Source of the DNA: Alphaproteobacteria bacterium
GTDB taxonomy: Bacteria; Pseudomonadota; Alphaproteobacteria; UBA6615
Length of the DNA: 64,000 nt
Assembly: GCA_965261975.1 (NCBI GenBank)
Contig: CBDHEC010000047.1
Span: 78,986 to 142,985, forward strand
Direction: 5' to 3'
Positions 8,818 to 44,144 of the stretch are shown here, one piece after another. The notes beneath the pieces were generated by a model. The model was not told the DNA's origin. It did no database searches and worked only from the letters and a program-made list of their open reading frames with translations. Made by a program: the position numbers and the translations under genes. The first letter of the stretch is position 1; every line of letters starts with the position of its first letter.

Positions 8818-8894
8818 GCGCTCGTAGCTCAGTCGGATAGAGCGCGGGATTCCTAATCCCGAGGTCGCAGGTTCGATTCCTGCCGGGCGCACCA
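8818..8894 (+). tRNA. tRNA-Arg (anticodon CCT)
   Basis: Acceptor GCGCTCG/CGGGCGC, anticodon arm CGGGA-TTCCTAA-TCCCG, GGTTCGATTCC T arm, encoded CCA. Confidence 0.95.
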
Positions 8895-8899
8895 CGCGA
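8846..8899 (+). repeat. attL core (3' half of tRNA plus 5 nt)
   Basis: Identical to 44091-44144 except T8865 vs C44110. Confidence 0.95.
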
Positions 8900-9008
8900 C
8901 GCTGCGACATAGTACGATTATATCTAGATATCCGCGGTTCTTGGAGATCTCTCTATCCCCGGACCGTACTCTGCAGCATCGCTTCGTACCACTTGCTACG
9001 AGATAGAA

Positions 9009-9028
9009 CCGTTGCTAGACCGTTGCTG
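9009..9028 (+). repeat. Putative integrase arm-type sites CCGTTGCTAGA-CCGTTGCTG
   Basis: 11-bp tandem echoed near attR at 44013-44034. Confidence 0.55.
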
Positions 9029-9062
9029 TGTGTTTCGGTTTTGGTGAATTGGATGGCGAACA

Positions 9063-10244
9063 ATGCGCGGAAAAGTAACGAAAACATCGGTGGAGAGGAT
9101 CAAACCAAGCACCCGAGACCAGTTTTTGTGGGACAGCGAGGTTAAAGGGTTCGGTACGAAAGTTACTCCGAAAGGCCGCCGGGTCTATCTCGTCCAGTAC
9201 TGGAAGGACGGGCGAACGCGTCGGGTAACGATCGGCGAGCATGGCATCTTCACGGCAGACGAAGCGCGAAGAAGAGCTGTTTCTCTCAAGGGAAGATTGG
9301 CCGATGGCCATGACCCCGCGCTGGAGAAACGCCACGCAAAGATGGCATCGGTTAGATCTCGTGTTTTCGATGATGTGATGAGGGAATTCATTGAACGAGA
9401 CCAGAAACCACGTAACAGGACCTGGAGGCAGGTTGAACGGCGATTGGAAAACCATGTGTTGCCGAGATGGTCAGGATTGGAGCTCGATCAGATATCTCGG
9501 CTACACGTTATTGATCTGCTCGACGCTCTTGACGGTGAGGGACTGAGCGGCGGAGCAAATCGGGTCCTTGCTGCTATTAGACGGTTGTTCAACTGGTCGG
9601 TCGAAGTAGGGATTATGGAAAACTCTCCTGCTGTGGGGGTGAAGCCGCGCCAAAGAGAGAAGGAACGCGAGCGAGTTCTTTCGAACGACGAAGTCCGATC
9701 GATCTTGCTCACAAGCCGGGATACAGGTGGGCCATTCGGTGCGTTCTTCCAGATCCTACTATTGACAGGTCAAAGGCGCTCGGAGGTCGCGAATATGACT
9801 TGGTCAGATCTCGACTTGGACGCCGCAGTTTGGAATTTGCCAGGGGATGCGACGAAGGCCGGTCGTACACACCAAGTGCCTCTATCTGATGACGCGCTGA
9901 GGATTCTGGCTTCCACGTCGCGTGGGAAGCGCGGTGACTATGTTTTGAGCACGACCGGCGGGAAATCCCCGATATCAGGGTTCTCGAAATCGAAGGCTAA
10001 ACTCGTAAGGGATTCAGCAGAACTTGAGGGCTCTGTCGGCCTGACAAATGACTGGCGCATTCACGATATTCGAAGAACCGTGGCGACGGGTTTGGCCGAA
10101 AAAGGAGTGCCGGTTCATACGATCTCGAGAATTCTGAACCATGCCGAAGGAGGTGTAACTCGTCTCTACGACCGGCATAGCTATCTCATGGAGAAGCGCG
10201 AGGCTTTAGATATCTGGTCTGAACATCTTCGTTCTCTATCCTAG
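9063..10244 (+). CDS. Tyrosine recombinase/integrase with N-terminal arm-binding domain (P4-like)
   Basis: LWDSEVKGFG..VTPKG arm domain; catalytic TGQRRSE, HDIRR, LNH, Y intact. Confidence 0.93.
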   Translation: MRGKVTKTSVERIKPSTRDQFLWDSEVKGFGTKVTPKGRRVYLVQYWKDGRTRRVTIGEHGIFTADEARRRAVSLKGRLADGHDPALEKRHAKMASVRSRVFDDVMREFIERDQKPRNRTWRQVERRLENHVLPRWSGLELDQISRLHVIDLLDALDGEGLSGGANRVLAAIRRLFNWSVEVGIMENSPAVGVKPRQREKERERVLSNDEVRSILLTSRDTGGPFGAFFQILLLTGQRRSEVANMTWSDLDLDAAVWNLPGDATKAGRTHQVPLSDDALRILASTSRGKRGDYVLSTTGGKSPISGFSKSKAKLVRDSAELEGSVGLTNDWRIHDIRRTVATGLAEKGVPVHTISRILNHAEGGVTRLYDRHSYLMEKREALDIWSEHLRSLS

Positions 10245-10392
10245 TCGTTTGTCTGTTCTTGAGAGACATGGGGACAATGAAATTTTGGGTCGTTGGGCTT
10301 CGTTCGAATCGGGTTGAGTGCACAATTGCTTGGACGCGGCTCCTGGTTTCCGGGTGCGCGCTTCCGACCACTCGTGAAGCTGAGACATCCAC

Positions 10393-11043
10393 ATGACGGG
10401 CCGCAGTGAATATCCTTCTGATTCGTTCTCCTTGGTGGACGCTTTTCGACAGTTTGCAGAGGAGGGCATGCTCGAATCATTCGATCGTGCGACCGCAGAA
10501 GTGAATGCTGCAGAACCAGTCGTCCGAATTGTCGATAGCTGGGTCTCTGGGCCTAAGCCTCGAGTTGATCAACAAAAACGCCGCGCAGCTTTAGCCAAAC
10601 GGAAGCGTATTTGGAGTCAACTGGAGAGATACATTCGGGATCAGCTGCAAACCGGAAATTTGGCCGCTGTTGGGCGCCGTCATATGCCCGACGGCCCGTT
10701 GGTGGATATCTCTGCTGACTGGAAATCTATGCGGCTCAACCCTTTAAATGAGACTGTTAGTTGGCGAGGTAAGCCTCTGTATTTCGGGGTTCGGATCAGG
10801 AGGCCCGAACTCTCCGCGCAAACGGTCACAGCCCGTAACGAGTTTGCAGCAGATCGGTGGCTTCGAGAGATCTGCGGCGACGAGGGTGCGGCGACAAGAA
10901 ACAAGGGCTTCTATATTGAGCAGATGATCGATTTCACCGGTGTCAGCAGGAAAGGAGCTGAGAGGGTTTGGAAAAAGGTGATGGGTGACTACCCGGATTT
11001 TATGAAGCCTGGTCCCAAGCCACTTGATCGACGTACGAATTAA
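10393..11043 (+). CDS. Hypothetical protein of the element core
   Basis: 216-aa ORF between int and xis-like gene; no recognised family. Confidence 0.6.
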   Translation: MTGRSEYPSDSFSLVDAFRQFAEEGMLESFDRATAEVNAAEPVVRIVDSWVSGPKPRVDQQKRRAALAKRKRIWSQLERYIRDQLQTGNLAAVGRRHMPDGPLVDISADWKSMRLNPLNETVSWRGKPLYFGVRIRRPELSAQTVTARNEFAADRWLREICGDEGAATRNKGFYIEQMIDFTGVSRKGAERVWKKVMGDYPDFMKPGPKPLDRRTN

Positions 11044-11134
11044 TTCCGGCCCCCCAACTAGTTCGGTACCCCTATAACGCAAGGTAAGGTTCAGTGAACA
11101 TCCGCTTCCACCTACAAACACGGAGGAGCGGACA

Positions 11135-11491
11135 GTGGACCCAACTACGGAAACCTCGCATCGTCAAAGTGCTGACGAAGAGCCCTCCGGTCGGCCGATA
11201 CCAGAGCTAGAGGGCGCCCTCCTTACTACAGCTGAATCTGCTTACCTCTTGGGCTTATCGAAACGAAGCCTTGAAGCGCTGCGAGTTCGCGGTGGTGGGC
11301 CAGTGTTTGTTGTTCTGGGACGAAGAGCGGTCAGGTACAGGCGATCAGATATCGTCGCGTGGGTTGATGAACGCAGATACTCAAGCACCAGTGATATTCG
11401 AGCTAAGAGACCGGTGCCTCAGAGCTCGTTCGATCAGACGAAATCTCATTGCGGAGGTCGTTCGTCCGTCGGCCGCTTGGGCGTGAGCTAA
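11135..11491 (+). CDS. HTH excisionase/AlpA-like protein
   Basis: LLTTAESAYLLGLSKRSLEALRVRGGGPVF..GRRAVRYRRSDIVAWV; RBS GGAGGAG. Confidence 0.8.
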   Translation: MDPTTETSHRQSADEEPSGRPIPELEGALLTTAESAYLLGLSKRSLEALRVRGGGPVFVVLGRRAVRYRRSDIVAWVDERRYSSTSDIRAKRPVPQSSFDQTKSHCGGRSSVGRLGVS

Positions 11492-12271: not shown

Positions 12272-12349
12272 ACCGCAATTGCTTGGCAAAAGCTGAACTG
12301 AGCTGCTCAGCTAAACTGGAACTACTGAGGGGTCGTCGGGTTGGTTAGC

Positions 12350-12397
12350 GGGTCCTTCCTGGAGATCGCTCTACCACGGGTTACGCAGCACCGCGGT
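12350..12397 (+). other. Lambda-like cos site (cosQ GGGTCCT plus cosN-like dyad)
   Basis: CGGGTCCTTCCTGGAGATC resembles the lambda right end CGGGTCCTTTCCGGTGATC; 23 nt after GGGTCCT comes GTTACGCAGCAC-CGCGG, flanked by ACCACGG/CCGCGGT. Confidence 0.55.
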
Positions 12398-12705
12398 GAG
12401 CCGGAGTTTTTGCGACGCATGATCACCGTAGAACTTCATTCTCTATTATGCTTAAGCGACAACACAGCCGAATATCTCCAATCCGCGATAAACCCTCATT
12501 ATCAGAGATCAAGTCTTCGCTAACGAGCGAGTTCGGTGTTGAACCGCAGTCGAATTCCCCGCTTCCTCGTCATGTGCGGAATTCAGAGCGTTCAACCTCA
12601 AACTCATGACGGCCCAGTTCTGACTTTTCACCAGTATGTGAGCGGCTCCAACCGTGATGCTGGCCTATAGTTCGCTTCGAATATCCCCACTATTCCGAGG
12701 TTTGC

Positions 12706-13332
12706 GTGTCGATTAGAACAGGATCTTCTTTCCGGACAGTGTTTCGCTTTTTCTTGGGGCTCATATGTTTGGTGCTCATCCTTACCGCGGCACCAGAAGC
12801 GGTCGCTGACGAGTTCCTCGAAGGTCAAATAGCCGCGCACGATGGTAATCATGAGGCCGCGTTGCGCGCCTGGTTACCGCTCGCCCGTGACGGGCATGTC
12901 AAAGCGCAATACGCCGTCGGTTCGCTCTTCGCCGAAGGCCGGGGAACGACGCAGGATCTGAGCACGGCATTCGATTGGTGGTTGCAGGCCGCAACGCAGT
13001 CGCACGTGCGGGCTCAGTTCAATGTCGCCGCCATGTACAAGAATGGGGTGGGGGTTGGTCAGAACGAGGTGGAGGCTGCGCGGTGGATTTCTGCGGCGGC
13101 AAACCTGGGCGATCGTGACTCGCAGGTTCAGCTCAGCCAATTCTATCGAGATGGTTTTGGCGTTGGCCAGAATCCCGTCACGGCATACATGTGGCTCGAG
13201 ATTGCGCGACTCGGTGGTCATCCTTCGATCGCGAAAGCGTTGAAGGCGAGCGCTTCTCTGTTGTCGGAAGAGCAGATCATCGAGGCTCAGAAACGCGCGG
13301 TGTCATGGCTCGAGCGCAAGAGCGTCGACTAG
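12706..13332 (+). CDS. Sel1/TPR repeat exported protein
   Basis: Signal peptide; repeated AQ..VG..Y..G.G..Q...A..W...AA units. Confidence 0.85.
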   Translation: MSIRTGSSFRTVFRFFLGLICLVLILTAAPEAVADEFLEGQIAAHDGNHEAALRAWLPLARDGHVKAQYAVGSLFAEGRGTTQDLSTAFDWWLQAATQSHVRAQFNVAAMYKNGVGVGQNEVEAARWISAAANLGDRDSQVQLSQFYRDGFGVGQNPVTAYMWLEIARLGGHPSIAKALKASASLLSEEQIIEAQKRAVSWLERKSVD

Positions 13333-13515
13333 ATCGTTTTTGCCGGTCACAGCCATGGGCGCTGCATTTGTCCGTCTGACTCTCTGCTTCAACAATTTTC
13401 AATGAACATGGTCGGCGAAGCCATTCGTTCCTGCTTCGCAAGTGCGGTGCGGCGCATCCGCCCTTGATGATATATCGAGATCAGGTGTCCCTAGGCCGGA
13501 GCGAAAATTTGCGTA
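13275..13515 (+). repeat. 241-bp direct repeat, copy 1 (sel1 3' end plus amiC leader)
   Basis: About 11 mismatches versus 16464-16704 by manual count. Confidence 0.92.
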
Positions 13516-13825
13516 CTTTGAGCACAGATAGACCTCAAAGAATTGATCTAACTTTTGAGCAGAGGGGAATCAGAGCACAAGGTCAAATGGGTCACTTGGT
13601 GCAAAACTCTAATTTTACCCTCAGAATGAATTCTGCAGATCTCACTTCGGGGCAATGCGCCACGGCTGTCACGGTAAGTGCCCGTGGAAGAGAGTGGGCC
13701 GAATTCTGGAGGAAGAGGTGCAGCACGGCACAGTTTGACGCGTTCTGTTTAGTTGTTGATCGATCACAACGTCAGGGCAAGCCCATGATCAATTGGCATC
13801 CGAGCGAGTGCGGATGGGGAGTGGC

Positions 13826-14983
13826 TTAAAACACGATCAGAAGGCTGGTCGCGTACATGATCACGACGCCACCGGCGAAGCCCGCCAACCCAATAGACCA
13901 TGACGTATCGGCGGGATGCTTGGAGTTCAACTTGAGCATGTATCGGCCAATCTCCACGATGACCTGCAGGATGGCGCCGGCGCCGATGCTGAGCAGCAGC
14001 GCGGTCCAGTGCGGTGCGGTGGCGAAGGCGCCAGCCCACGTGCCGAGGATCGCCGGCGCTCCAGCGAGCGTAGTAAGTCCTACGAACAGCCGAAATCGCG
14101 GCTTTAAGCCGACCAGTAACACTGCGATGCAGATGCCCTCAGTTATGTTGTGCAGCGTGAAGCCTGCTATGAGGAACGAGCCTAGTGCCGCCTCGCCAGC
14201 CGTGAATGCCGCGCCAATGGCGAGCCCTTCGCCGAAATTGTGTAACCCGATCCCTGCTGCGATGAAGGTCGCCAGTGCGTCCTTTTCTGGTGCACTGCCA
14301 CTGCGATTGCTGGCGACCAAGAGCGTGGCCAAGCTCGCGAGTGTCGCAAGCCAGACGAGCTGCAGGCTGCGCAGACCCGGTGCGGCGCGGTTGGCGAGTT
14401 CGAGCGCTTCGTTGAGTGTGTCGATCAGCAGGAATGCGAGCAGACCGACCGTCAGGGAGAGCAGGAAGGTCATGCCCGTCTGGCCGAATCGTTGCAGCAG
14501 CGGAAAGAACATCATGCCGAGTGCTACCGGCAGGACACCCACGAACACACCTAGCAGTCCGAAGTTCGCCAACTGGGCAAGCCCGAATACCGGCGTCGAC
14601 CGGGATACTTCGATCACGTGATCAAAGGTCAGTCCCGACCGGGTGACGAGTGTTATCCGATGCGTTTCGTTTTCTATCCAGGGGTAGGGAATGCGAATCT
14701 TCGCCTTACCGAGATTGTCGACCGGTTTGGGCGGTTCTTGCTTGAACCGCCAATAAGCGCCATCGACCTGTATCTGGGCAATCTCGACCGGCATCGGCCC
14801 CATGGCACGAACCTCTAGGGTAACACCGCGATCATCGAGGATAGTGCGTTCAACCGTTAGATGCTCCGATGGCGGCGCATTGGATTCGAGCGGTGCTAAC
14901 GGGTTCGTGAACACGAACGCGACCAGTATCAGCCCGAGAAGCGACAGTGGTGCGATCGCGTATATTGCCTTGCGGCTCATCAC
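13826..14983 (-). CDS. ZIP family metal transporter with N-terminal periplasmic domain
   Basis: GIGLHNFGEGLAIG and LHNITEG ZIP signatures. Confidence 0.85.
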   Translation of the reverse strand: MMSRKAIYAIAPLSLLGLILVAFVFTNPLAPLESNAPPSEHLTVERTILDDRGVTLEVRAMGPMPVEIAQIQVDGAYWRFKQEPPKPVDNLGKAKIRIPYPWIENETHRITLVTRSGLTFDHVIEVSRSTPVFGLAQLANFGLLGVFVGVLPVALGMMFFPLLQRFGQTGMTFLLSLTVGLLAFLLIDTLNEALELANRAAPGLRSLQLVWLATLASLATLLVASNRSGSAPEKDALATFIAAGIGLHNFGEGLAIGAAFTAGEAALGSFLIAGFTLHNITEGICIAVLLVGLKPRFRLFVGLTTLAGAPAILGTWAGAFATAPHWTALLLSIGAGAILQVIVEIGRYMLKLNSKHPADTSWSIGLAGFAGGVVIMYATSLLIVF

Positions 14984-16068
14984 GCCACCTCGAAGAAGCC
15001 CATCCAGCCGAGCTCTGCAAACTCGCTCTGATGAGCATGAAACATGTACATGCCGGGCTCGTGATCGGCGAACGTGAACTCAAGAATGCCGCGCTGTCCC
15101 TGGCACTGCATTACGGTGTCGATCGTGCGCGATGTGGGCTCAAGTGTCGTGCCGGCATCGTAGTAATCAAAGAAGTTTGCGTGCAAATGGAACGAGTTAA
15201 TCGGGTCGAACTCGGTCACATTGACGAGATAAATACGTACCGGACGCGTGCGGTCGATCCGGATTGGTTGTTTCGAGAAGGCATGCGCGATCGAGTTGAC
15301 GGCGTAGACCTCGTTCTCATCGTCGAAATTCGTATCGAAGCCATTCATGACCATCACGAATTCCTGCCAAGCTGCATTTTCTGATGCGCCTAGCCTGCGG
15401 CTCCGAGCCACTTCAGCTTCTTCCGGGTGCCGTGCCGGATCAGGATCGACGATGAAGGCGCCATAGAGCCCTTTGTGAATGTGTCGTTTTAGCGGCACGG
15501 AGTGGCAGTGGTAGAGATGACAGCCGAACGGGAATGCGTCGAACTCGTAGACGAAGTTTTCGCCGGGATAGATCTCGCCAGCGCCTGGAATTCCGTCCAT
15601 GCGCGCGCTGTGGATTCCGTGAAAATGCATCGTGTGCGGGTGGCTACCGGCATTGCTGAATCTGATCCGTATACGATCGCCTTCGCCAACCCGCAATGTC
15701 GGCCCCGGCACTCGGCCATTATATGTCCAGGCGGGGAAGAACACGCGCGGCGCGATCTCGATCTCCCGATCGATGGCGACCACGTCGAACTCGCGCAGGG
15801 TTCTTCCGTCAGGAAGTGTCGATGCCTTGCCTTCGTCCCAGTCCGTCAGCATCGCAGTCGGATCGAAGCCGTTGCGGTCGTGACCGACCTGACCGACAGT
15901 CGTCATGACACCTTCGTGGTTCCGATTATTCTGATTACGCTCGATTGTGCCAGCACCTTCGGCGTGACGTCCGAAGAACAGCCCAATGCTGCCAAAAACA
16001 CTACCGCCCAATAGGCGGCGTCTGTTCATCAGAAAATTTAGCGACCGCGGCATGTTTCCTCTGGCCAT
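14980..16068 (-). CDS. Two-domain multicopper oxidase, Tat-exported
   Basis: NRRRLL Tat motif; HPHTMHFHG, YHCH..HIHKGL, FHLH, FHAH. Confidence 0.88.
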   Translation of the reverse strand: MARGNMPRSLNFLMNRRRLLGGSVFGSIGLFFGRHAEGAGTIERNQNNRNHEGVMTTVGQVGHDRNGFDPTAMLTDWDEGKASTLPDGRTLREFDVVAIDREIEIAPRVFFPAWTYNGRVPGPTLRVGEGDRIRIRFSNAGSHPHTMHFHGIHSARMDGIPGAGEIYPGENFVYEFDAFPFGCHLYHCHSVPLKRHIHKGLYGAFIVDPDPARHPEEAEVARSRRLGASENAAWQEFVMVMNGFDTNFDDENEVYAVNSIAHAFSKQPIRIDRTRPVRIYLVNVTEFDPINSFHLHANFFDYYDAGTTLEPTSRTIDTVMQCQGQRGILEFTFADHEPGMYMFHAHQSEFAELGWMGFFEVA

Positions 16069-16102
16069 CGTGGGAGCATCGTCCTGATATGTATATGCTA
16101 AA

Positions 16103-16124
16103 AAAATTAGCTAAGGCTACATTC
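16103..16124. promoter_or_regulatory. MntR/DtxR-type operator AAATTAGC-TAAG-GCTACATT
   Basis: TAGC-N4-GCTA dyad in AT-rich context just upstream of the MCO start. Confidence 0.55.
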
Positions 16125-16433
16125 TTAGTGTGGAGAAATCGAAAGCGCTGGGCATCGCCAAGTGAACATCCTTGGCGAAAGCCATGAGATTTGGGCGGCG
16201 ATTTATGCTCTTCCGGAACCGTTCACTTTCAGGGTTCTGTTCGTTCCGCGGGATCACTAGCCAACGGAACTTGCCTTGTGCGCATCGCCTGGCTCCGGAC
16301 GGTCAGGCCTCTCTCCGTGATGCCGATTCGTCCGCTGCGCGCGGCTGTATTTGCAATCTCCATAGGGAGAAGAACAATGGCTGAAAAGCTCACGACGAGA
16401 CTGCTGTCTGGTTTATGCCGGCCCCTTGGGTCA

Positions 16434-16521
16434 GCGCCGCAAACCTGGGGATCGTGATTCGCGGATCATCGAGGCTCAGAAACGCGCGGTGTCATGGCTC
16501 GAGCGTAAGAGCGCCGACTAG
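16434..16521 (+). pseudogene. Relic of a second sel1 gene copy with a 150-bp internal deletion
   Basis: 16439-16463 matches 13099-13125, then jumps to 13275 via GCAG microhomology. Confidence 0.7.
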
Positions 16522-16704
16522 ATCGTTTTTGCCGGTCACAGCCATGGGCGCTGCATTTGTCCGTCTGACTCTCTGCTTCAACAATTTTCAATGAACATGG
16601 TCGGCGATGCCATTCGTTCCTGATCCGCAAGTGCGTTGCGGCGCATCCACCCTTGCAGATATACCAAGATCAGGTGTCCCTAGGCCGGAGCGAAAATTTG
16701 CGTA
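16464..16704 (+). repeat. 241-bp direct repeat, copy 2
   Basis: Matches 13275-13515; ends at the A of the amiC ATG. Confidence 0.92.
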
Positions 16705-17909: not shown

Positions 17910-18010
17910 CTGGCCACAATCACATCTATGCCGCGTGCGTGAAGCGCGTACGTCGATGTCACATGCCGGTCCATCGACTATTTTCACTGCACTTGGAAAT
18001 AGAGAACCGC

Positions 18011-31764: not shown

Positions 31765-31770
31765 CGCAAG

Positions 31771-34020: not shown

Positions 34021-34038
34021 TATCGCAAGGAACTGGAC

Positions 34039-34909: not shown

Positions 34910-34953
34910 CTGCTCGTCGGTGGACATGACCGGCAAAACACGGGGTCAGTAAA

Positions 34954-35352
34954 TTGAACATCAGCGAAGCGGCCGAACGAGCAGGTTTGCCACCCAAAAC
35001 GATCCGATACTACGAGGATATTGGTCTTGTTGAACCGGCACGCCGGCGAGACAACGGCTATCGCGACTACGCAGATCGCGACGTCCATATGCTGCGTTTC
35101 TTGTCCCGCGCACGGAGTTTGGGTTTCTCCGTAGCAGATTGCCGGTCTCTGGTGGAGCTGTATGGCGACACCAACCGCAAGAGCGCGGATGTGAAAGAAC
35201 TCGCCTTCAAGCGTGTAAGGGATATAGACGCCAAGGTTTCAGAGTTGCAGGCGATGCGTGCAACACTTGTGAAACTCGCCGAAAATTGCCACGGCGACGA
35301 TCGACCCGACTGCCCGATTATCGATGACCTGTCCGACAGCGGGGGCCTTTGA
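34954..35352 (+). CDS. cueR: Cu(I)-responsive regulator CueR
   Basis: [29 protein letters not shown]. Confidence 0.92.
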
Positions 35353-35353
35353 T

Positions 35354-37675
35354 ATGAGCGCTGAAGTTACTTTGGATGCTCGGGTGCAGGACCCCGTCTG
35401 TGGCATGGACGTCGACCCCACGAACACGGCGCACTATCTCGAGCACGTGGGCGAGACCTACTATTTTTGCTCTGCCGGGTGTGCTGCAAAGTTCGTCGGT
35501 GATCCCGAGCATTATCTGCTCCCGCCGGACGAACGGCCCGCGCCGATCGTCGCTCCGGGTACGCAATATACCTGTCCTATGCATCCCGAGATCATTCGCG
35601 ATGAGCCCGGTAGTTGTCCGATCTGTGGCATGGCGTTGGAGCCGATGGGCGTTTCGCTAGATGACGGCCCCAACCCGGAGCTCGCAGATTTCACACGGCG
35701 CTTCCGGTTTGGCGCTGTCCTGACTGTCCCGCTGCTCGGGATCGTGATGGGCGACTTGCTGCCTGGTGTCCATTTTGCCGAGTGGATTGGCTCCCCCTGG
35801 TATGGCGCGTTGCAGTTTGTGCTCGGTACGCCGGTGATTCTCTGGTCGGGGAAACCCTTCTTCGAACGCGGCTGGGCATCGGTCGTCACGCGTAACCTGA
35901 ATATGTTCACGCTTATCGCATTGGGAACCGGCGCGGCGTTCATATATTCGACTGTTGCTGCATTCGTACCGGGAATTTTCCCCGACGATTTCCGTGGACC
36001 CTCCGGTGGTGTCGAAATGTACTTCGAAGCTGCGGCGGTCATCATTGTGCTGGTCCTTCTGGGGCAGGTGATGGAGTTGCGGGCGCGCGAACAGACCAGT
36101 GGCGCGTTGCGCGCGCTCCTCGATCTGGCGCCGAAAACCGCGCGCCGGATACGCGATGACGGATCGGACGAGGAAGTGTCTCTCGATGCGATTGTGCCGG
36201 ACGACAGGCTGCGAGTGCGTCCGGGCGAGAAAGTTCCCGTTGACGGGACTGTGGTCGAAGGTCGTAGCTCCATCGACGAATCGATGGTGACGGGCGAATC
36301 CATCCCGGTCGAAAAAGCGCCCGACGATACGGTGATCGGGGCCACCCTGAACGGCACCGGTGGACTGGTAATCCGCGCCGATCGCGTCGGCGCCGATACC
36401 ATGCTGTCGCGGATCGTGCAGATGGTTGCGGAAGCCCAGCGATCCCGTGCCCCGATCCAGCGACTGGCGGATGCCGTCGCCGGGTATTTCGTTCCAGTGG
36501 TCGTGGTGATCGCCATTGTCGCCTTTATCGTCTGGGCGATCTGGGGGCCGCCGCCGGCCATGGCGTTTGCGCTCATCTCGGCGGTGTCCGTTCTGATCAT
36601 CGCCTGTCCGTGCGCCCTCGGCCTCGCCACCCCCATGTCGATCATGGTCGGGACCGGGCGCGGCGCCCAGGCCGGGGTCTTGATCAAGAACGCCGAGGCG
36701 CTCGAGAAGTTCGAAAAGGTGGACACGCTGGTGGTCGACAAGACCGGCACGCTGACGGAAGGCAAGCCGCGGCTAACGTCCATTGAAACCGCTTCCGGCA
36801 CGGCAAATGACGATCTTCTGCTTCTGGCTGCCAGCCTGGAACGCGGCAGTGAACATCCGCTTGCCGCTGCCATTGTTGATGCGGCACTTGATGCGGATCT
36901 CGATCTCGTGGAACCCACAAGGTTCGAGGCAGTGACTGGTAAGGGTGTTGCGGGCGAGGTCGATGGTCAGAAAGTCCTCCTGGGGAATGCCAGGATGCTC
37001 GAACATGCAGGGATTGACCCGGGCAACTGGACCGACCACGCAGACGAGCTTCGCCGGGAGGGTGAGACAGTCATGCTGGTCGCGGTCGACGGCGCGATTG
37101 CCGGCATCATCGGTGTCGCGGACCCGGTCAAGCAATCAACTCCCGAGGCCCTGCGTTTGTTGCGCGAGGAAGGTATTCGCGTGGTCATGCTCACCGGTGA
37201 CAATCGGACGACCGCAGAGGCCGTGGCACGCCGCCTCGGAATCGAAGATGTCGAAGCAGACGTTCTGCCCGAGGAAAAGGCGGCGGTCGTAAAGAAATAC
37301 CAGTCCGAAGGCCGGATCGTGGCCATGGCGGGTGACGGCGTGAACGACGCGCCGGCGCTCGCGAGCGCGGATGTGGGCATCGCCATGGGCACGGGGACGG
37401 ATGTGGCGATCGAAAGTGCGGGCATCACGCTGATCAAGGGTGACCTGATGGGTGCCGTGCGGGCACGGCGCCTGTCGCGCGCAACCATGCGAAACATCCG
37501 CCAGAACCTGTTCTTTGCGTTCTTCTATAACGCGCTTGGTGTGCCGATCGCGGCCGGTGTGCTGTTCCCGTTCCTGGGCATTCTGCTTAGCCCGATGTTC
37601 GCGGCTGCGGCGATGAGCCTGAGTTCGGTATCTGTGGTCGGGAACGCGTTGCGGTTGAAGAAGGTTCGGGTGTGA
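35354..37675 (+). CDS. copA: Cu(I)-transporting P1B-1 ATPase with YHS and CPMH domains
   Basis: DPVCGM..YFCS..C, YTCPMHP, CPC, DKTGT, YN, MSLSS. Confidence 0.93.
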
Positions 37676-37810
37676 CAAGTGAGAGAGTTCGATGCGCATG
37701 ACCAATCTCGAGTGTGCGGGGAAACGGGCGCTTTGTATGGCGCAAGGGCTCTTTGGTTTCACCCGCTGAGAATGCGCATCTGCCAGTTCGCCAAACCCAG
37801 GAGGACTTAC

Positions 37811-38158
37811 GTGCGACAAACTTTAGGGATGTTACTGACAGTCATGTGGATCGTGATCGAACCGGCAACGGCGGCGGCCATTGGGTATGGCGATAACTTT
37901 ATGGGTTGGGGCTCCAGCTTCGGTCTTGGCCACATGTTCTTTGGTGGCGCGATGATGATTGCGTTCTGGGGCGCGATTGTCCTGCTGTTCGTGGTGATTC
38001 ACAGGTTCTCAGGATCACGAACAGAGCAACTCCATAGTGCGTCCAAGCAGAGTCTCTCTTTGAGCGTTCTGAATGAACGATATGCCCGTGGTGATATCGA
38101 TCACGACGAGTTCGAAAAACGACGGCAATCGCTGCGGCAGTCGAATGGGTCGGTTTGA
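37811..38158 (+). CDS. SHOCT domain membrane protein
   Basis: MGWG..GHMFFGG, LNERYARGDIDHDEFE; GAGGA RBS before GTG 37811. Confidence 0.75.
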   Translation: MRQTLGMLLTVMWIVIEPATAAAIGYGDNFMGWGSSFGLGHMFFGGAMMIAFWGAIVLLFVVIHRFSGSRTEQLHSASKQSLSLSVLNERYARGDIDHDEFEKRRQSLRQSNGSV

Positions 38159-38248
38159 GGCGGGGGGACTGAATACGGCTGTTCGTTGGCGTGTTGAGTC
38201 GGCGGCGCCGCATCGATGGGAACAATCTTAACCGAAGACAGGAACCAG

Positions 38249-38632
38249 ATGATGAAAACGATACTCAGTGTACTTGCAGTTTCCGCATTTCTTGCGTCAC
38301 CGGCTCTAGCCCACAGCGCCAATGACGCTCAAGGTGCGAGCCCAAGATTCGCTCAGATGGACCGGATGATGGATCGTGCGGATGAAACAACCGATCCCCG
38401 CGAACGCCGTGAATTCGTGGAGGAACACCTGAAACTCATGAGTTCGCAGATGGCCATGATGCACGAGATGATGGGCGGTCATCGCGACGGAACGCCGGAT
38501 TCTCCGCGCATGGGTCCGGACTCGATGCAAGACCGGGCGGGCCGCATGGAAGACCGCATGGATATGATGCAACAGATGATGGAGCACATGTTCTCGCAGC
38601 AGGAAATGATGATGCGTGACGAAAGTCGGTAG
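38249..38632 (+). CDS. Met-rich periplasmic protein (putative Cu/Ag binder)
   Basis: Signal peptide; 21 Met in about 106 mature residues. Confidence 0.75.
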   Translation: MMKTILSVLAVSAFLASPALAHSANDAQGASPRFAQMDRMMDRADETTDPRERREFVEEHLKLMSSQMAMMHEMMGGHRDGTPDSPRMGPDSMQDRAGRMEDRMDMMQQMMEHMFSQQEMMMRDESR

Positions 38633-38716
38633 GATCACGACGTCATCCCCATTCGCTCGGGCAGGTCTGTTATGCGCGTGCGCACGACAGTCCGGTCCGA
38701 GCATTGGCTGGCCATT

Positions 38717-39478
38717 ATGAATGTCCGGGGAACCTACACCCTGTGCCGCCGCGAGACCCTGCGCTTCAAATCAGTCTGGCTGCAGACGATTCTGGGGCCG
38801 GTGATCAGCGTTCTGCTCTTCGTCATCGTGTTCGCCGCGGCGTTGGGGCGCGGCGATATCGTCATAAACGGCACGTCCTATGTCGCGTTCATCGTGCCCG
38901 GGCTGGTCCTGATGGCGATGCTCCAGAATGCATATGCGAACACGTCGTCGTCACTGCTGATTGCAAAGGTCAGCGGTACCATCGTCGATGTTCTGATGGC
39001 CCCGCTCGCACCCTTTGAGCTTGTGATCGGTTATGCCGCAGCAGCCGTTTTCCGGGCCTTCATTATCGCGGTCTTGTTGGTTTTGGCGGTGTCCCCATTT
39101 GTGGATCTTGCCGTTCGCAGTTGGCCGTTGTTGATCGCGGTCGGGCTTCTCGCCAGCACCGCATTCGCTGTCCTGGGGATTCTCAACGGTATCGTCGCCA
39201 CTCGCATGGAGCATGTGGCGGGCGCGTCGACCATTCTTATTGCACCGCTGACGATGCTAGCTGGCACCTTCTATTCGGTGTCGTCCCTGGCCGAACCCTT
39301 TCGGTCCATCAGTTACTTGAACCCGGTTTTCTTCCTCGTGGATTCCTTTCGGTCCGCCTTCACGGGTGTGTCGGAGGCCGCCCCGGTGCTCACGCTGCTC
39401 GGCCTGGTCGCGGTGAACATCATGCTGACGTGGGTCACGATTCTCATTTTAAGAAGCGGTTATCGCCTCAAGGGTTGA
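38717..39478 (+). CDS. ABC-2 type transporter permease (YadH-like)
   Basis: RETLRF..VWLQT, FIVPGL, NAYANTSSS, NPVFFLVD. Confidence 0.85.
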   Translation: MNVRGTYTLCRRETLRFKSVWLQTILGPVISVLLFVIVFAAALGRGDIVINGTSYVAFIVPGLVLMAMLQNAYANTSSSLLIAKVSGTIVDVLMAPLAPFELVIGYAAAAVFRAFIIAVLLVLAVSPFVDLAVRSWPLLIAVGLLASTAFAVLGILNGIVATRMEHVAGASTILIAPLTMLAGTFYSVSSLAEPFRSISYLNPVFFLVDSFRSAFTGVSEAAPVLTLLGLVAVNIMLTWVTILILRSGYRLKG

Positions 39479-39527
39479 AAGGAACTGTTTCCGGAGGCCG
39501 AATTTGCACTCAAACAGGAGATGAAGA

Positions 39528-39785
39528 ATGAACCTCAATGCGAACAAACTGGCAATTTCTACTGCCGTCGTGTTTGGCGTTCTTTGGGTTATCTGCAGCG
39601 CTCTGGTTGCCCTGTTTCCCGGGCAAATGCTTCGGATGACCGGGTATATGGTCCATTCGGAGCTCATTTCGTTCCAATGGTCCCTGACACTGGCCGGGTT
39701 TGTCGGCGGACTGGTGCTCTGGTCCGTTCTGTCGGGCCTGATTGTCTGGCTGGTAGCGCGCTTCTACAACCGAATCGCGGCTTGA
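39528..39785 (+). CDS. Small membrane protein (DUF5676-like)
   Basis: 85 aa, two TMs, WVICS..MVH, FYNR; RBS AGGAG. Confidence 0.65.
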   Translation: MNLNANKLAISTAVVFGVLWVICSALVALFPGQMLRMTGYMVHSELISFQWSLTLAGFVGGLVLWSVLSGLIVWLVARFYNRIAA

Positions 39786-39874
39786 TCTTCTCCAACCGAC
39801 GAACCGGATGATTGCGAACGTTTCTCGGTGTCGCTCGATTGACTGGCGGATGCGCCCGGCTGATACGAAATGTT

Positions 39875-40423
39875 TCAGCAACCTCGCTTACGCTTCGCCA
39901 GTTCTCTGTACAGTGCTTCCGGACTGACGCCGATCTGTTGTGCGAGGCTTCTCCATTCACCTTTCGGGGGTAGCGTGCCATACCAGCTTTCCCATGCTGC
40001 CAGTCTTCCTTCGATCGTTCTGAGCGAAAGCGTTTCCGCGCGAAACCGTGTGCTCTGAACTTCGTGGGCCAGGTGCGCCATGAAGGCCTCCGCAAGATCT
40101 GGCTCTTCGCGCAACCGTTTTCGCACCGCCCCTTGCGGGATGCTCTGGACAGTTGTGGCGTCTGTCGCGATGGCGTCACAGTGATAGGCCTTTGCGAACA
40201 GAGACGCTTCTGCGACGACTTCGCCGGGCTGCGTTCGTTGCAGAATGACGGAGCCGCCTGTCTCGCCGAATCGGACAAGATGCACTTCGCCCGCAAGCAC
40301 CAGGTGCAGTCGCCGGACGGGCTCTCCAAGGTGAAAAAGATACTCACCCGGAGTGAGCGCCCGCCGGGAACCGCCTGACAATCGGAACGAATCAAAAATC
40401 TCGGAAGACATGATCTTGATCAT
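39875..40423 (-). CDS. Short Crp/Fnr family transcriptional regulator
   Basis: cNMP-like domain GEYLF..GEVHLVR..AEASLF..YHCDA; HTH LAQQIGVSPEALYREL. Confidence 0.85.
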   Translation of the reverse strand: MIKIMSSEIFDSFRLSGGSRRALTPGEYLFHLGEPVRRLHLVLAGEVHLVRFGETGGSVILQRTQPGEVVAEASLFAKAYHCDAIATDATTVQSIPQGAVRKRLREEPDLAEAFMAHLAHEVQSTRFRAETLSLRTIEGRLAAWESWYGTLPPKGEWRSLAQQIGVSPEALYRELAKRKRGC

Positions 40424-40426
40424 GTC
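40407..40426. promoter_or_regulatory. Perfect palindrome GACATGATC-TT-GATCATGTC (FNR-box-like ATGAT-N4-ATCAT)
   Basis: Overlaps the regulator start codons, upstream of the divergent gene. Confidence 0.7.
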
Positions 40427-40481
40427 AGTGATCTTGCTGCTCTGGCAAGTTCGGGAACGAATTCACACTCGGGAGCAGAGA

Positions 40482-41063
40482 ATGTTGAAACACATAGTGA
40501 TCGCCACAGTATTGTTAGTGCCGCTCGCCGCTCAGGCACAGCCTGTCGACCGAGCGCACAGTTCCGGCATGACGCATGTCGACCATGGCGCCGAAATGGA
40601 ACGCACTAGAGGGGCCTCTGCCCGGGAACCCGGCCAGGGCGCTTTCGCGGCAATTCAGGAGATTGTCGCCCTCCTGGATTCCGATGCGGACACCGACTGG
40701 ACGAAGGTCAATATCGACGGGCTCCGCCAGCATCTGGTCGACATGGATAATGTGACGCTGCATGCCGAAGTTTCGGAAACAAGGATTGCGGGTGGAAGGC
40801 GCTATCTGGTCACGGGCGCTGGTGCGGTCCGGGAATCCATCGATCGGATGATCAAGGCGCATGCCGAGACCATGGATGGGGTAAACGGCATGCGCATCTC
40901 GGCCGCGACCGTGCCTGATGGAACGACAATGACCGTGACCGTGGCAGAACCGACGGATTTGCCCAGGCTGGAAGGTCTCGGCTTTATTGGCGTCATGGCG
41001 CTGGGCGCGCATCATCAGGAACACCATCTCATGATTGCGAAGGGTGAAGGACCGCACGGATGA
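40482..41063 (+). CDS. His/Met-rich exported hypothetical protein
   Basis: Signal peptide; PGQGAFAAIQEIV, LRQHLVDM, AHA.TM, GAHHQEHHLMIAKG. Confidence 0.75.
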   Translation: MLKHIVIATVLLVPLAAQAQPVDRAHSSGMTHVDHGAEMERTRGASAREPGQGAFAAIQEIVALLDSDADTDWTKVNIDGLRQHLVDMDNVTLHAEVSETRIAGGRRYLVTGAGAVRESIDRMIKAHAETMDGVNGMRISAATVPDGTTMTVTVAEPTDLPRLEGLGFIGVMALGAHHQEHHLMIAKGEGPHG

Positions 41064-41202
41064 TATTCGAAGCTGAGGGGTCGCGTGCGTCTCTTGCTGA
41101 ATCCGGGGAATCGCGAATACGGTGGCCCAACCGGCCCGGGCCAAAAGAACTGACCCGGGTCGGCACGATGCGGCACAAGCCGGAAGCGGCGCTACTCGTG
41201 AT

Positions 41203-42099
41203 CTATTCCGTTTCGTTGTTCAGAAGATAATGGGCGATCGCGCGCAGGTCCTCGTCGGTCAGCCACGAGGTGCCGTCGCGAATGACCTCCCCCATGCTGC
41301 CGCCAAGCACGTCACCATTGGGTTTCGTGCCGAATCTTAGCCCGAACGCGAGATTGTTCTCGGTCCAGCCGCGCTCACCGAGCGCGGCGGGCGTGATCGG
41401 CGGCGAGCGTTCGCCGCCTGGCAGACCGCCCGCACCGTGAAGTGCCTGCTCGGCATCGCCCGCGCCGAGAAGGTTACGGGGCGTGTGACACGCGCCGCAA
41501 TGCGCGGGCCCCTCGACGATGTACCGGCCCCTGTTCCAGGCGTCGCTCCTGCTCGGGTCATCCTCGAACCGCTCGGAATCAAAGAAGAGGTTCTGCCAAC
41601 CGCGAAGTGCCCAACGTTGATCGAATGGAAAACCGAGTTCCTGGGTCTTCGAGGGAATGTCCGCATTAGGAACCGTTTTCATCGCGGCCCAAAGGTCGGC
41701 GACATCCTGGTCGGTAAGCTTTGAATAGAAGGTATACGGGAACGCCGGATAGTAGGGTTCGCCTTCTGGGGAAATGCCGTGTCGCAAGGCGCGTGCGAAG
41801 TCATTCAGGGACCAGTTTCCCAAGCCTGAAATGGGGTCCGGCGTGATATTCGGGCCGTAGAACGTCCCGAACGGCGTCTTGAGGGGTGGGCCTCCGGCCA
41901 GGAGTTCTCCGCCCCCCGCTTCGTTTGTGTGGCAAGCGATGCAGCCCGCGAGGCGTGCGACATAGGCGCCGCGCTCCGGATCGCCTTCGAGTTGCGCGAT
42001 CACCGTGTCGGGCACCGTGTTGCCGCGGAGAACGGTCACGGCACTGCCGACCGCGACCACCGCGATCGCCGCGGCAGCCACCAAGTAAAACTTTCTCAT
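41203..42099 (-). CDS. Diheme c-type cytochrome
   Basis: CIACH, PNITPD, CGACHTPRN. Confidence 0.88.
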   Translation of the reverse strand: MRKFYLVAAAAIAVVAVGSAVTVLRGNTVPDTVIAQLEGDPERGAYVARLAGCIACHTNEAGGGELLAGGPPLKTPFGTFYGPNITPDPISGLGNWSLNDFARALRHGISPEGEPYYPAFPYTFYSKLTDQDVADLWAAMKTVPNADIPSKTQELGFPFDQRWALRGWQNLFFDSERFEDDPSRSDAWNRGRYIVEGPAHCGACHTPRNLLGAGDAEQALHGAGGLPGGERSPPITPAALGERGWTENNLAFGLRFGTKPNGDVLGGSMGEVIRDGTSWLTDEDLRAIAHYLLNNETE

Positions 42100-42108
42100 G
42101 AGTGCCGC

Positions 42109-42717
42109 CTACTGTTTCTTGCGAAACTGGGTGTGGCAGGCGCTGCATGTCTGTGTGACACGTGCGAATGCTGCGTCGGGCGGCATCTTCGCGAGGGCCG
42201 CCGGATCGTTCATCGGCATGCCGCTCGAGGATGACCCGCCCATCATGGGGTTGCGGCGTCCCATCGGGCTTGTCCCCATACCGCCCTGGCGTCCCTGATT
42301 CATGCTTGCGCCCATGCCCGGACCGCGGGGATTGTCGGCTGCCTCTGCCAGAGCGCTGGCATATTTTGTCAGGTCGTTCGCGAGTTCCGAAAACCGGTCC
42401 CAGTCCTGCCAGATCGCAGGCAGGGATTCACTCGGTCCCTGAATGCTGCCTTCGGGAAACAATCGGGTCATTTGTTCGCCGCCATGGTTTCCGATGAAGG
42501 CCGCAGCTTCGCGAAGAGCCGCCGCATCGAAAGGTTTCTCACCCTGAAACATCTCCGTAATGGTTTTCATGGATTTACCGACGGCATCCATGAGGTCCAT
42601 CCGCTCTTTCACGATTCCCGTGGCGCCGCCGTGGGCAAAGGCCAGGCCGGTTGAGGCCACGATAATGAGCGCCCCGACCGGGGCCAAGATTTTGAGTTTT
42701 AAGTTCCGCATGTTCAC
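42109..42717 (-). CDS. Cytochrome c'/c556 (class II) with Gly/Met-rich insertion
   Basis: C-terminal CSACH, IWQDWDRF; insertion GPGMGASMNQGRQGGMG..MMGG. Confidence 0.85.
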   Translation of the reverse strand: MNMRNLKLKILAPVGALIIVASTGLAFAHGGATGIVKERMDLMDAVGKSMKTITEMFQGEKPFDAAALREAAAFIGNHGGEQMTRLFPEGSIQGPSESLPAIWQDWDRFSELANDLTKYASALAEAADNPRGPGMGASMNQGRQGGMGTSPMGRRNPMMGGSSSSGMPMNDPAALAKMPPDAAFARVTQTCSACHTQFRKKQ

Positions 42718-42747
42718 GTCTCACTTCCGAGCATTGGCTTTAAATGC

Positions 42748-42783
42748 GTCATATTTCCGGCTCACATGGGCTGGAAATATGAC
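42748..42783. promoter_or_regulatory. Intergenic inverted repeat GTCATATTTCC...GGAAATATGAC
   Basis: 16-bp imperfect stem between leader-like ORF and cytochrome c'. Confidence 0.5.
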
Positions 42784-42808
42784 CGCAAAAGCATTGAAAG
42801 AAAATCAG

Positions 42809-43222
42809 CTAACCAAGTTCAGCTGTTCTCTGCTTCGGAGGAGGAGGATCAACCGTGAGAAACGAAGCGGGTCGAAACCCTGGTATGACGGAGAATGGCT
42901 CAGTGTTGATCGATCGAGGCGCGCCGGCCAGATCTGCATTGGACATCGAATAGCCGGGTGAACAGGGAACAGCACCGTGATGACATGCCGGCGCTTCCTC
43001 TTGGCCGCCATTCGGCTGACCCGGGTCCAGCGTTCCTGTGAGGATTTGCGTTGTCGTTTCTGACGGTTTGCCCTGGTGGGCGTGTGCGGTCGATGCGGTT
43101 CCCAGGGACAGGAAACATACGACCGCGACAGCAGCCCACAGAAGCGAGGCGCTGGAAAAACACCTTTCGATCAAGCTGCTGCCCAGCTCTTCCTTGTCAT
43201 GATCTGCGAGTGCTTTGCTCAA
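42809..43222 (-). CDS. Small exported protein with CHH..C and C-terminal PPPP (CopL/CutF-like)
   Basis: Signal-like segment, ACHHGAVPC, VDPPPPK; start uncertain. Confidence 0.5.
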   Translation of the reverse strand: MSKALADHDKEELGSSLIERCFSSASLLWAAVAVVCFLSLGTASTAHAHQGKPSETTTQILTGTLDPGQPNGGQEEAPACHHGAVPCSPGYSMSNADLAGAPRSINTEPFSVIPGFRPASFLTVDPPPPKQRTAELG

Positions 43223-43225
43223 TGA

Positions 43226-43699
43226 TCAGGAGCCTCTGGCGCGTCTGTTCATGTCGCTCTGTCGCTGCTGGATCTTGCCGGGCCAGCGCGACTTAATATA
43301 AGCGAGCACTGCCCAGATTTGCTCGTCTGAAAGTACCCCTTCGTAAACCGGCATGTCCGTCTGCACAGGTTGCCCGACCACGGCGGACAACCCGAATTTC
43401 GTGAGATTGAACAGGGACACGTCGTCATGATGCCAAGTGTGTCCCGATGCGTCATGGGGGGGAGCCGGCAGCCTGCCGTTGGCCTTGCGTGATCGCCAGT
43501 TTGGCTGGCCTTCGAGATTGGCACCGTGGCACGCTGCGCATTGGGATGCATATACCTGCCGCCCCAGGGCCACGAGTTCCGCGTTCGAAGGATCGGCCGA
43601 AAGCGTTGCTTCGGCAGTCGGTTTGCCAATCGAGAGATAGATGCCCGCGGCAACGACCGCGATCACAAAAACCGTTATCACCAGACTACGTTTGGACAT
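43226..43699 (-). CDS. Monoheme c-type cytochrome (copper-cluster associated)
   Basis: CAACHGANLEGQPNW, PAPPHDASGHTWHH, MP..LSD. Confidence 0.88.
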   Translation of the reverse strand: MSKRSLVITVFVIAVVAAGIYLSIGKPTAEATLSADPSNAELVALGRQVYASQCAACHGANLEGQPNWRSRKANGRLPAPPHDASGHTWHHDDVSLFNLTKFGLSAVVGQPVQTDMPVYEGVLSDEQIWAVLAYIKSRWPGKIQQRQSDMNRRARGS

Positions 43700-43725
43700 A
43701 AACCTGCTCACCAAGTGCAGATCAT

Positions 43726-43756
43726 GTCCTACAGCTTCCACCTGCTGGAAGGTCAA
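43726..43756 (-). promoter_or_regulatory. CueR-type promoter TTGACC with CTTCC-N7-GGAAG dyad
   Basis: TTGACCTTCCAGCAGGTGGAAGCTG; weak -10 TAGGAC at 19 bp. Confidence 0.75.
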
Positions 43757-44012
43757 GCGCGGACTTGATTGAACATTCTCCAGTGGTACACGAGATGTTG
43801 GTGCGTATTTGGTACACTTCGTCACAAACAACCATGATTAACGGTGATCAATCAGGACAAGACGTTCACGAAAGTCGCCCAATTTTTCTATTGCCGTTGA
43901 TCTTGGTTGATACCCGCCGGGTCACTCGGTCGTGACTACGGATCAGATGGCTGTTCACAGGGGGTTGGCTAGAGCCTTGTGTGGTTGAACTTTCCGGTCA
44001 ATGATGGAGATA

Positions 44013-44034
44013 CCGTTTCTATTCCATTGCTAGA
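44013..44034 (+). repeat. Putative arm-type sites CCGTTTCTATT-CCATTGCTAGA
   Basis: Match to 9009-9028. Confidence 0.5.
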
Positions 44035-44090
44035 TGTGGAATGACGTCCAGTAAAATGTTTTAAAACAGTAAATTGTGATTAAAACACAT

Positions 44091-44144
44091 GGGATTCCTA
44101 ATCCCGAGGCCGCAGGTTCGATTCCTGCCGGGCGCACCACGCGA
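44091..44144 (+). repeat. attR core (displaced 3' half of tRNA-Arg)
   Basis: 54-bp copy of 8846-8899. Confidence 0.95.

Follow-up and report, generated by a model that had tools for sequence, protein, structure and literature searches.

Does a large metal-resistance island of an alphaproteobacterium carry a phage packaging site, and might such an island travel as a "natural cosmid" in the particles of a helper phage? The locus that raises this question lies in a 64,000-nt stretch of contig CBDHEC010000047.1 (assembly GCA_965261975.1), hereafter the window. Here, a 35,245-bp island with ~31 kb of cargo of copper and redox functions is inserted in the 3' end of a tRNA-Arg(CCT) gene, between 54-nt direct repeats. 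The first-pass annotation had described it as a phage-satellite core followed by a lambda-like cos site. Judging from the recurrence of its motif, the site beside the island replication gene, rep, is very probably homologous to the cosQ–cosN region of lambda-type phages with a gpA terminase; the further reading, that the island is a helper-dependent integrative element packed by a helper phage, i.e., a cos-type phage satellite, has in our estimate about an even chance of being correct.

The cos-like site and its occurrence elsewhere

A cos-like motif is indeed present at 12349–12397, where it had been noted originally. It includes a cosQ-like element with the 15-mer GCGGGTCCTTCCTGG, which begins 77 nt after rep (Table 1); after the motif the window reads A, GATCGCTCTACCA, and CGGGTTACGCAGCACCGCGG. 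We read the site as a phage cos because the motif recurs in an island of a relative, in prophages, and in viral contigs.

A profile built from the island Rep and three relatives matched 10 of 400 other genomes of the class, and four of these loci (G269, G220, G140, and G276) were examined. Comparison of the gap after the island rep with the DNA after the relatives' rep genes yields one exact 15-nt match, GCGGGTCCTTCCTGG, 7 nt after the rep stop codon of G276 (BLAST E 0.035 over about 130 kb of loci, the position of the match being left out of the count). It belongs to a second island, of 22,022 bp between 49-nt repeats at tRNA-Arg(ACG) (L199, L344–L346; G276:C1), in which one end carries an open reading frame (ORF) of unknown function, an HTH_17 xis, rep, and the cos motif, the far end carries the integrase gene, and the cargo consists of UvrD-like, PLD-like, and SNF2 helicase genes, possibly a defence system. 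Its core proteins are 43.5% (Xis), 27% (Rep), and 29% (integrase) identical to those of the window. The two copies of the 15-mer stand in different reading frames, hence, the conservation is at the DNA level.

In G269, the profile match lies within a prophage, just upstream of genes for ClpP, small and large terminase, and portal. G220 has an island with an integrase gene, an unknown ORF, and a rep-like gene (L197, G220:C69, 7233–11672), immediately after which a CRISPR array of at least 22 units (repeat 36 nt, period 66 nt) extends to the contig end. In G140 (L196, G140:C53, 1951–6725), a 4,711-bp element between perfect 64-nt repeats has only an integrase gene (product 33% identical to that of the window), small ORFs, and an HTH_36 rep-like gene, with neither cargo nor the cos motif; its 64-nt repeat includes a terminator-like hairpin, and iteron-like repeats follow right after its rep.

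Across 401 genomes of the class, the 15-mer has 17 exact matches in 13 genomes, versus 5 matches for the reversed control. Two of the 17 are the islands of the window and G276; six, one of them from the unpublished genome G076, lack phage or island context; and nine fall in a conserved block of ~75 nt that has no match in Rfam. Pfam context was checked for four of the nine block loci, over 20 kb around each. In G293, genes for AAA_24, DUF669, helicase, primase-polymerase, and DUF6362 proteins lie upstream of the motif, and those for a ParB-like methylase, DUF3489, a 186-aa ORF, a gpA terminase (ATPase and nuclease domains), a lambda-family portal, and capsid lie downstream. The motif is followed by a methylase fragment, gpA, and portal in G334, and by methylase, a portal fragment, capsid, cement protein, and tail tube in G179; the G226 locus is riddled with insertion sequences. 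A gpA terminase is present in two of the four loci and a lambda-family portal in three. Three of the loci retain phage genes, and there the motif stands where the early and late genes of lambda-type prophages meet.

The 16-mer GCGGGTCCTTCCTGGC (the motif plus C) is found exactly in at least 119 IMG/VR contigs (L221–L339), retrieved with a pattern ending in C, the flanks of which otherwise differ. Most of those listed have the motif, then ~13 variable bases, then a G-rich block starting with CGGG or GGG; in 32 of the 119, this block contains GGGCGGGC, close to the cohesive end of lambda. The 40 nt that follow the 16-mer in 98 distinct viral sequences, and no other positions, served to build a weight matrix. 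With it, the window site obtains 4.24 against a background mean of -8.7 (sd 5.2) and ranks, in register, among the best 0.53% of the 127,920 positions of the window; moving the frame by -2, -1, or +2 makes the score collapse, but a shift of +1 does not (3.76). For the G276 site, the score is 0.68.

Four of the five motif-bearing viral records tested (G435–G439) encode GpA_ATPase, the fifth being a 10.6-kb fragment. Downstream of the motif, G435 has first a 228-aa ORF without a Pfam match and next gpA, the order of lambda cos-Nu1-A (cos-terS-terL). The contigs G438 and G439 both terminate exactly 25 nt after the 16-mer; in G438 (42,549 nt, classed as linear, 92% complete), gpA lies ~0.9 kb from the opposite end and the two ends have 8 nt in common, an arrangement like that of a genome cut at cos. 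Three motif-bearing phage contigs that were compared differ in GC content (0.49, 0.68, and 0.56) and have otherwise nothing in common with the island, so the motif appears to be a widely kept signal, not the mark of one lineage. The cosQ of lambda-like phages, 7 bp long, is highly conserved, and termination of packaging requires it; the 16-mer looks like a cosQ element conserved well beyond the enteric lambda group.

The putative nick region was placed by alignment with the closest viral sites. By eye, among the matches listed, these are CGGGTAATGCGCACCGCGG (L261) and CGGGTAACGCGCACCGC (L311), i.e., CG, GGTAAYGCGCAC, CG, with 12 nt. Nicks are accordingly predicted in the window at ~12378/12379 and ~12391/12392, and a matching helper phage would be expected to have the pattern CG, GGTTACGCAGCAC, CG. 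The termini originally proposed, 12380–12391, fall within this predicted region. The earlier reading of the motif stands for its left part, the exact 15-mer of gpA phages; the GGTTACG that had been matched to the lambda right end falls within the predicted cohesive end, which makes that part of the match coincidental.

Likeness to Escherichia coli lambda, taken alone, did not hold up as evidence of cos: it is near chance, and a cos reading based on it would have been rejected. The window and the last 31 nt of lambda have CGGGTCCTT, GATC, and GGTTACG in common, but the window has 6 extra bases; the window 15-mer contains the lambda GGGTCCT, and at the lambda right end CGGGTCCTT and then CC..GG are common to both, with small shifts. 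Over the following 12 nt, 5 of 12 positions equal the lambda cohesive end (by eye). In strict local alignment of lambda cos to 293 window tiles, the gap scores 24 versus 27 for the best tile, and under three lenient schemes 3, 2, and 17 of the 293 tiles score as high as the gap. For the lambda 31-mer alone, the gap is the best place in the window, yet 1, 8, or 64 of 100 shuffled windows equal it, depending on the scoring. Blastn of the gap against 50,697 phage records gave nothing, and IMG/VR lacks the exact window 50-mer. A pattern fitted to the window and lambda alike matched 120 viral contigs, all with the 31-nt spacing of lambda and none with that of the window; 116 of the 120 have the 12-mer of lambda itself.

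Around the window site, no iterons are evident in the gap after rep, and in the island Rfam recognises the tRNA only. A perfect 11-nt inverted repeat (12075–12085 and 12362–12372) pairs the 3' part of rep with bases right after the 15-mer.

Core genes, transfer genes, and possible helpers

The gene order first proposed for the core, i.e., integrase, unknown gene, Xis/AlpA-like helix-turn-helix protein, and Rep-like protein, is borne out by Pfam and PHROGs. The closest relative of the integrase among 400 other genomes of the class is 44% identical. The neighbourhoods of 13 integrase relatives are mixed, with primase–helicase modules, AAA_25 replicases, terminases in one, and in some a direct transition to cargo. 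The orphan ORF finds no homologue besides itself in a word-index protein search and only unnamed clusters in the protein atlas. The HTH_17 ORF probably starts later than annotated at 11135; it is co-directional with the integrase gene, matches HTH_17 and phrog_66, not the AlpA family PF05930, and has 43.5–48% identity, over 62 residues, with the HTH_17 genes in G276 and G416.

In Rep, the N-terminal winged helix matches HTH_36 weakly and PHROG replication-initiation families (best 1.2e-10), and the C-terminus matches DnaA_N (DnaA domain I) at 3e-8; a PDB sequence search gives just one marginal match, DnaA domain I (E 0.067). HMMER against 1.84 billion representatives finds one near-full-length relative, P0003 (36% identical), and nearly all other listed matches (402 in total at E up to 0.001) span the winged helix only. 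Rep was not found in 60 relatives, its word-index protein search recovered the query alone, and locus searches with Rep, P0003, or their alignment gave no match in genome, metagenome, or viral contigs. No primase or helicase domain is seen among the island ORFs by Pfam.

Genes for autonomous transfer or virion formation had not been recognised in the first-pass annotation, and scans of 41 island ORFs with Pfam and of 8 + 16 with PHROGs agree, giving no relaxase, type IV secretion system (T4SS), terminase, portal, capsid, or tail family; outside the core, the phage library matches nothing but amidase and M23 peptidase domains of a generic kind and one family whose function is unknown. The host assembly (3.03 Mb, 94.6% complete) was searched with ten marker families. 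It has no match to PF03432, PF02534, PF03135, PF08751, or PF03389 (relaxase, coupling protein, VirB4). Terminases of the gpA type occur in 5 of 45 other genomes of the taxonomic family of the host. In one family member, G014, the ATPase domain of gpA terminase is matched 11 times, which points to unusually many lambda-type prophages or derivatives of them. In the host assembly itself (G000), the lack of PF04860 portal, PF05065 HK97-type capsid, and PF03237/PF03354 terminase means that no cluster resembling a gene transfer agent was detected.

Table 1. Features of the island and its insertion site in the window.
Feature	Position	Strand	Basis
tRNA-Arg(CCT), integration target	8818..8894	+	ARAGORN; Rfam tRNA 72.8 bits
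attL, 54-nt repeat: last 49 nt of the tRNA + 5 nt	8846..8899	+	repeat comparison
Tandem ACCGTTGCT repeats, 11-nt period, candidate arm-type integrase sites	9008..9027	+	repeat search
Tyrosine integrase with arm-binding domain (P4-type)	9063..10244	+	Phage_integrase, Arm-DNA-bind_3, Phage_int_M
Orphan ORF, 216 aa	10393..11043	+	no family in Pfam, PHROGs, or NCBIfam
HTH_17 excisionase/AlpA-like DNA-binding protein	11135..11491	+	PF12728 2.2e-8; phrog_66 1.5e-10
Rep-like initiator, 259 aa	11492..12271	+	N-terminal winged helix (HTH_36, phage O/DnaD-like) + C-terminal DnaA domain-I-like module
cosQ-like element	12348..12363	+	15-mer GCGGGTCCTTCCTGG (12348–12362) identical to that of gpA-terminase phages
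Spacer, 13 nt, from cosQ-like element to predicted nick region	12364..12376	+	family-profile register
Predicted cosN: CG, 13 nt (12379–12391), CG	12377..12393	+	alignment with closest viral sites
Non-coding stretch, candidate cosB and/or replication origin	12394..12705	+	no convincing ORF; ORFs of at most 74 aa
Cargo	12706..43831	.	Pfam: Sel1/MerG-like protein, ZIP-like permease, multicopper oxidase, AmiC-type amidase, M23 peptidase, CtaG, PCuAC, SCO1, DsbA-like and DsbD proteins, redoxins, c-type cytochromes, two P-type ATPases with two MerR regulators
Two tandem 18-mers just inside attR, possible arm or bending sites	44049..44084	+	repeat search
attR, second copy of the 54-nt repeat	44091..44144	+	1 mismatch to attL (53/54 identical)

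Proposed packaging by a helper phage and competing explanations

If the island is a cos-type satellite, its integrase and Xis would excise a circle, and Rep, with its winged helix and DnaA-domain-I-like module, would start replication in or near the rep-proximal gap, giving concatemers. The terminase of a gpA-type helper phage, infecting or induced, would then nick at the two predicted positions and pack from cos to cos, the cosQ element permitting termination of packaging. In a new host, the integrase would insert the island into the conserved tRNA gene, bringing in genes of copper and redox homeostasis.

Packaging limits of lambda are about 75–105%. One 35.2-kb unit would fill about 0.74–0.83 of a head of 42.5–47.8 kb, the island being 0.83 of the length of G438, the phage with the motif at its physical end, and 0.74 of that of G436; the size is no more than consistent with head packaging. 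The earlier claim that cargo brings the island near the size of a helper genome stands as far as the 42.5-kb phage is concerned. The G276 island, at 22 kb, would need two units (44 kb) per head, so the size of the monomer need not be tuned to the capsid.

Besides the small second island, several observations weigh against packaging by a helper. At the site itself, the 16th base of the cosQ-like element is A in the window and C in the G276 island and in all nine aligned prophage loci; the predicted cohesive end is 13 nt in the window versus 12 nt in the nearest viral sites, L261 and L311; and positions 12364–12705 have no similarity to the flanks of 119 viral and 9 prophage motif loci, although cosB is phage-specific, so that a missing cosB match decides nothing. 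After cos there is no rpp- or terS-like gene; what follows is the gene for a 208-aa Sel1-repeat cargo protein. As regards a helper, the three motif-bearing phage contigs compared yield no match to the island core proteins, hence, no helper was identified; the host assembly contains no gpA or other terminase, portal, or capsid, and the motif and the rep-proximal gap are single-copy in it, so the resident prophage with a matching cos envisaged in the first-pass annotation was not found; and gpA is present in none of 11 genomes of the same genus. All 24 listed public runs with the island are stored as contigs, in which molecule ends, circles, and particle association are not visible. Finally, a block of int, xis, rep, and cos is also what would be expected of a prophage after replacement of its late genes.

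The last point defines the main rival, which we consider unlikely, if less so than the others: the int–xis–rep–cos block would derive from a temperate phage of the gpA type, as its early arm, cargo having taken the place of the late genes, with cos present by descent and no longer used, and the island would move rarely, or only by its integrase and generalised routes. The position of the motif exactly at the early/late junction of prophage loci argues for this, since deletion of the late arm would leave the layout of the island, as do the HTH_36 Rep-like proteins inside complete prophages (L198 and L059) and the fact that no helper, cosB match, or rpp gene was found. On the other hand, remnants would have to have undergone the same reduction in two independent islands with strongly diverged cores, with the motif kept exactly; the ORFs of int, xis, and rep are intact, and 53 of 54 positions still agree between the att repeats; runs of several studies include contigs of the island core with at most one base changed; and the 4.7-kb G140 relative with int and rep-like genes and perfect 64-nt repeats points to a living int–rep platform.

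It is more improbable still that the motif serves another purpose, e.g., as a regulatory or replication-linked early/late site, and that the island moves by conjugation (with a mimic of an origin of transfer) or by generalised transduction. The site adjoins rep in both islands, which have the 10-mer GGAGATCGCT in common, near or in the 3' end of each rep, and in G140 iteron-like repeats come just after rep; moreover, islands with no transfer genes can still travel in unrelated phages, as reported in PMC12595487. Against it, the motif is tied to genome ends, by its position 25 nt before the end of two viral contigs and just upstream of terS/gpA in G435. As for conjugation, neither the island nor the assembly has a relaxase, coupling protein, or VirB4, and trbJ, trbL, and traJ, given as hallmarks of PIMEs in a preprint (10.64898/2026.01.12.698999), are absent from the island ORFs. 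A chance look-alike with no function, which the weak match to lambda alone (in tiles and shuffled windows) and the five matches of the reversed 15-mer might suggest, can practically be dismissed, given the exact 15-mer beside rep in the second island and the downstream profile in register at the 0.5% level.

Helper packaging thus being retained as the preferred reading, a broader one may be put forward tentatively: that Alphaproteobacteria harbour int–xis–rep–cos "platform" islands that use the near-invariant cosQ of gpA-terminase phages of very different hosts. At present, such a class would comprise two islands with the motif (22 and 35 kb), to which the 4.7-kb G140 element, lacking the motif, is possibly related. 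If this is true, varied lambda-type phages would transduce blocks of copper-resistance or defence cargo with no gene for capsid remodelling or terminase redirection. If the present island is packed via cos, large metal-resistance islands would have a route among marine Alphaproteobacteria that needs neither plasmids nor conjugation, and cos-type satellites would extend past enteric bacteria and staphylococci, to a size at which a single unit fills the head. The motif is a simple search key for such islands, and the predicted nick pair gives testable termini.

Known elements, insertion site, and cargo

Like the cos of lambda and laboratory cosmids, the island has a cosQ-like element upstream of a predicted CG-flanked nick region, a motif family linked to gpA terminases, and a unit length within range for a head of 42–48 kb; unlike lambda, it has a predicted cosN with 5 of 12 positions equal (by eye), another spacing from cosQ to the nick, and no cosB that we could identify. 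A complete prophage would have terminase, portal, capsid, and tail genes, which the island lacks, and it differs from integrative mobilizable elements, PIMEs, and integrative conjugative elements in having no relaxase, coupling protein, T4SS, or traJ/trbJ/trbL among its 41 ORFs. Cos islands of the SaPIbov5 type and P4 are satellites that have the cos of their helper and depend on the helper terminase, as is proposed for the island; they are small, belong to other lineages and hosts, and often have genes for capsid size or interference, unlike the island, in which no such genes were recognised. SaPIbov5 is mentioned in PMC6092414.

The closest comparison is with cos-type phage-inducible chromosomal islands (PICIs) such as EcCICFT073 and PICI-A. 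According to PMC6092414 and PMC9026076, PICIs of E. coli have cosQ and cosN like those of their helpers, with no cosB match, and are transferred by lambda and phi80; their cloned cos sites make plasmids transferable by these phages, and deletion of both sites abolishes island transfer. In common with them, as described there, the present island has co-directional genes for an integrase and an AlpA/Xis-type regulator, a replication gene, no virion genes, and a cosQ-like element and predicted cosN resembling those of lambda-type helpers, with no recognisable cosB. It differs in its alphaproteobacterial host, in its size (~35 kb, with 31 kb of metal/redox cargo), in an O-like initiator (winged helix plus DnaA_N) in place of a primase-replicase, and in lacking after cos the gene for Rpp, given in PMC9026076 as a winged-helix protein of 135–154 aa encoded right after cos. 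Further, EcCICFT073 is thought to be packed as multimers, whereas a monomer of this island would nearly fill a head. The island would work like a cos-type PICI but is far larger; since it has neither pri-rep nor rpp, its core is not the PICI-type core suggested in the first-pass annotation.

[quoted passage not shown] VEIMEs were recovered from phage particles as concatemer-derived monomers, whereas this island is known from sequence alone; the typical PICMI, as characterised in that source, has a reduced gene content, unlike the island. Islands linked to tmRNA genes (I55; PMC12595487) resemble it in their large size, tyrosine integrase, flanking repeats, and lack of recognised genes for autonomous transfer, those of the I55 type being moved between cells by jumbo phages; they differ in that their cargo is phage defence, and the abstract of that paper mentions no cos site.

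The insertion is real, as follows from empty sites in the same-genus genomes G004, G007, G002, and G010, where the tRNA gene is followed directly by homologues of the window from 44551 or 45380 onwards. The attL and attR repeats are 35,245 bp apart, start to start, as first annotated; the tRNA, the sole one of the window, has only two copies of its 3' core there, and GC content falls at position 9000 from 0.65 to 0.53–0.55. The closest relative, G008, has 2.1 kb of different DNA at the tRNA site. The region between attR and the conserved flank (44145–45380) varies within the genus, G004 retaining 44551–45349 beside the tRNA and G007, G002, and G010 lacking it; such variation suggests a recombination hotspot or what is left of an older insertion.

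In the public runs, X1 and X2 give identical tables and are probably one data set. Here, a contig of 3,664 nt spans 8876–12528 with one base change and an 11-nt insertion after 9007, i.e., one extra ACCGTTGCT unit, and contigs break at 12499–12528; X19 and X9 have core and cargo pieces with 0–1 base changes. In X1, X2, X19, and X9, the island has coverage but the left chromosomal flank (6501–8500) hardly any, although coverage holes prove nothing; neither joints nor loose ends suggestive of attP or an empty attB were seen. In a second contig form of X1/X2 (depth 26.2), 8906–9006 is replaced by 24 other bases, and one X1/X2 contig diverges from the window after 9053, just ahead of the start of the integrase gene; the att-proximal DNA (8905–9053) may be common to this island and a related element that has another integrase.

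A plasmid search with the cargo matched the P-type ATPase genes only (73–75%). Within the cargo, a 244-nt direct repeat, 95% identical (13272–13515 and 16461–16704), flanks a 3.2-kb module with the ZIP-like permease, the multicopper oxidase, and a small ORF. Contig depth in X1/X2 is 5–7 over this module versus 31–39 on either side, as if most copies of the island were without it.

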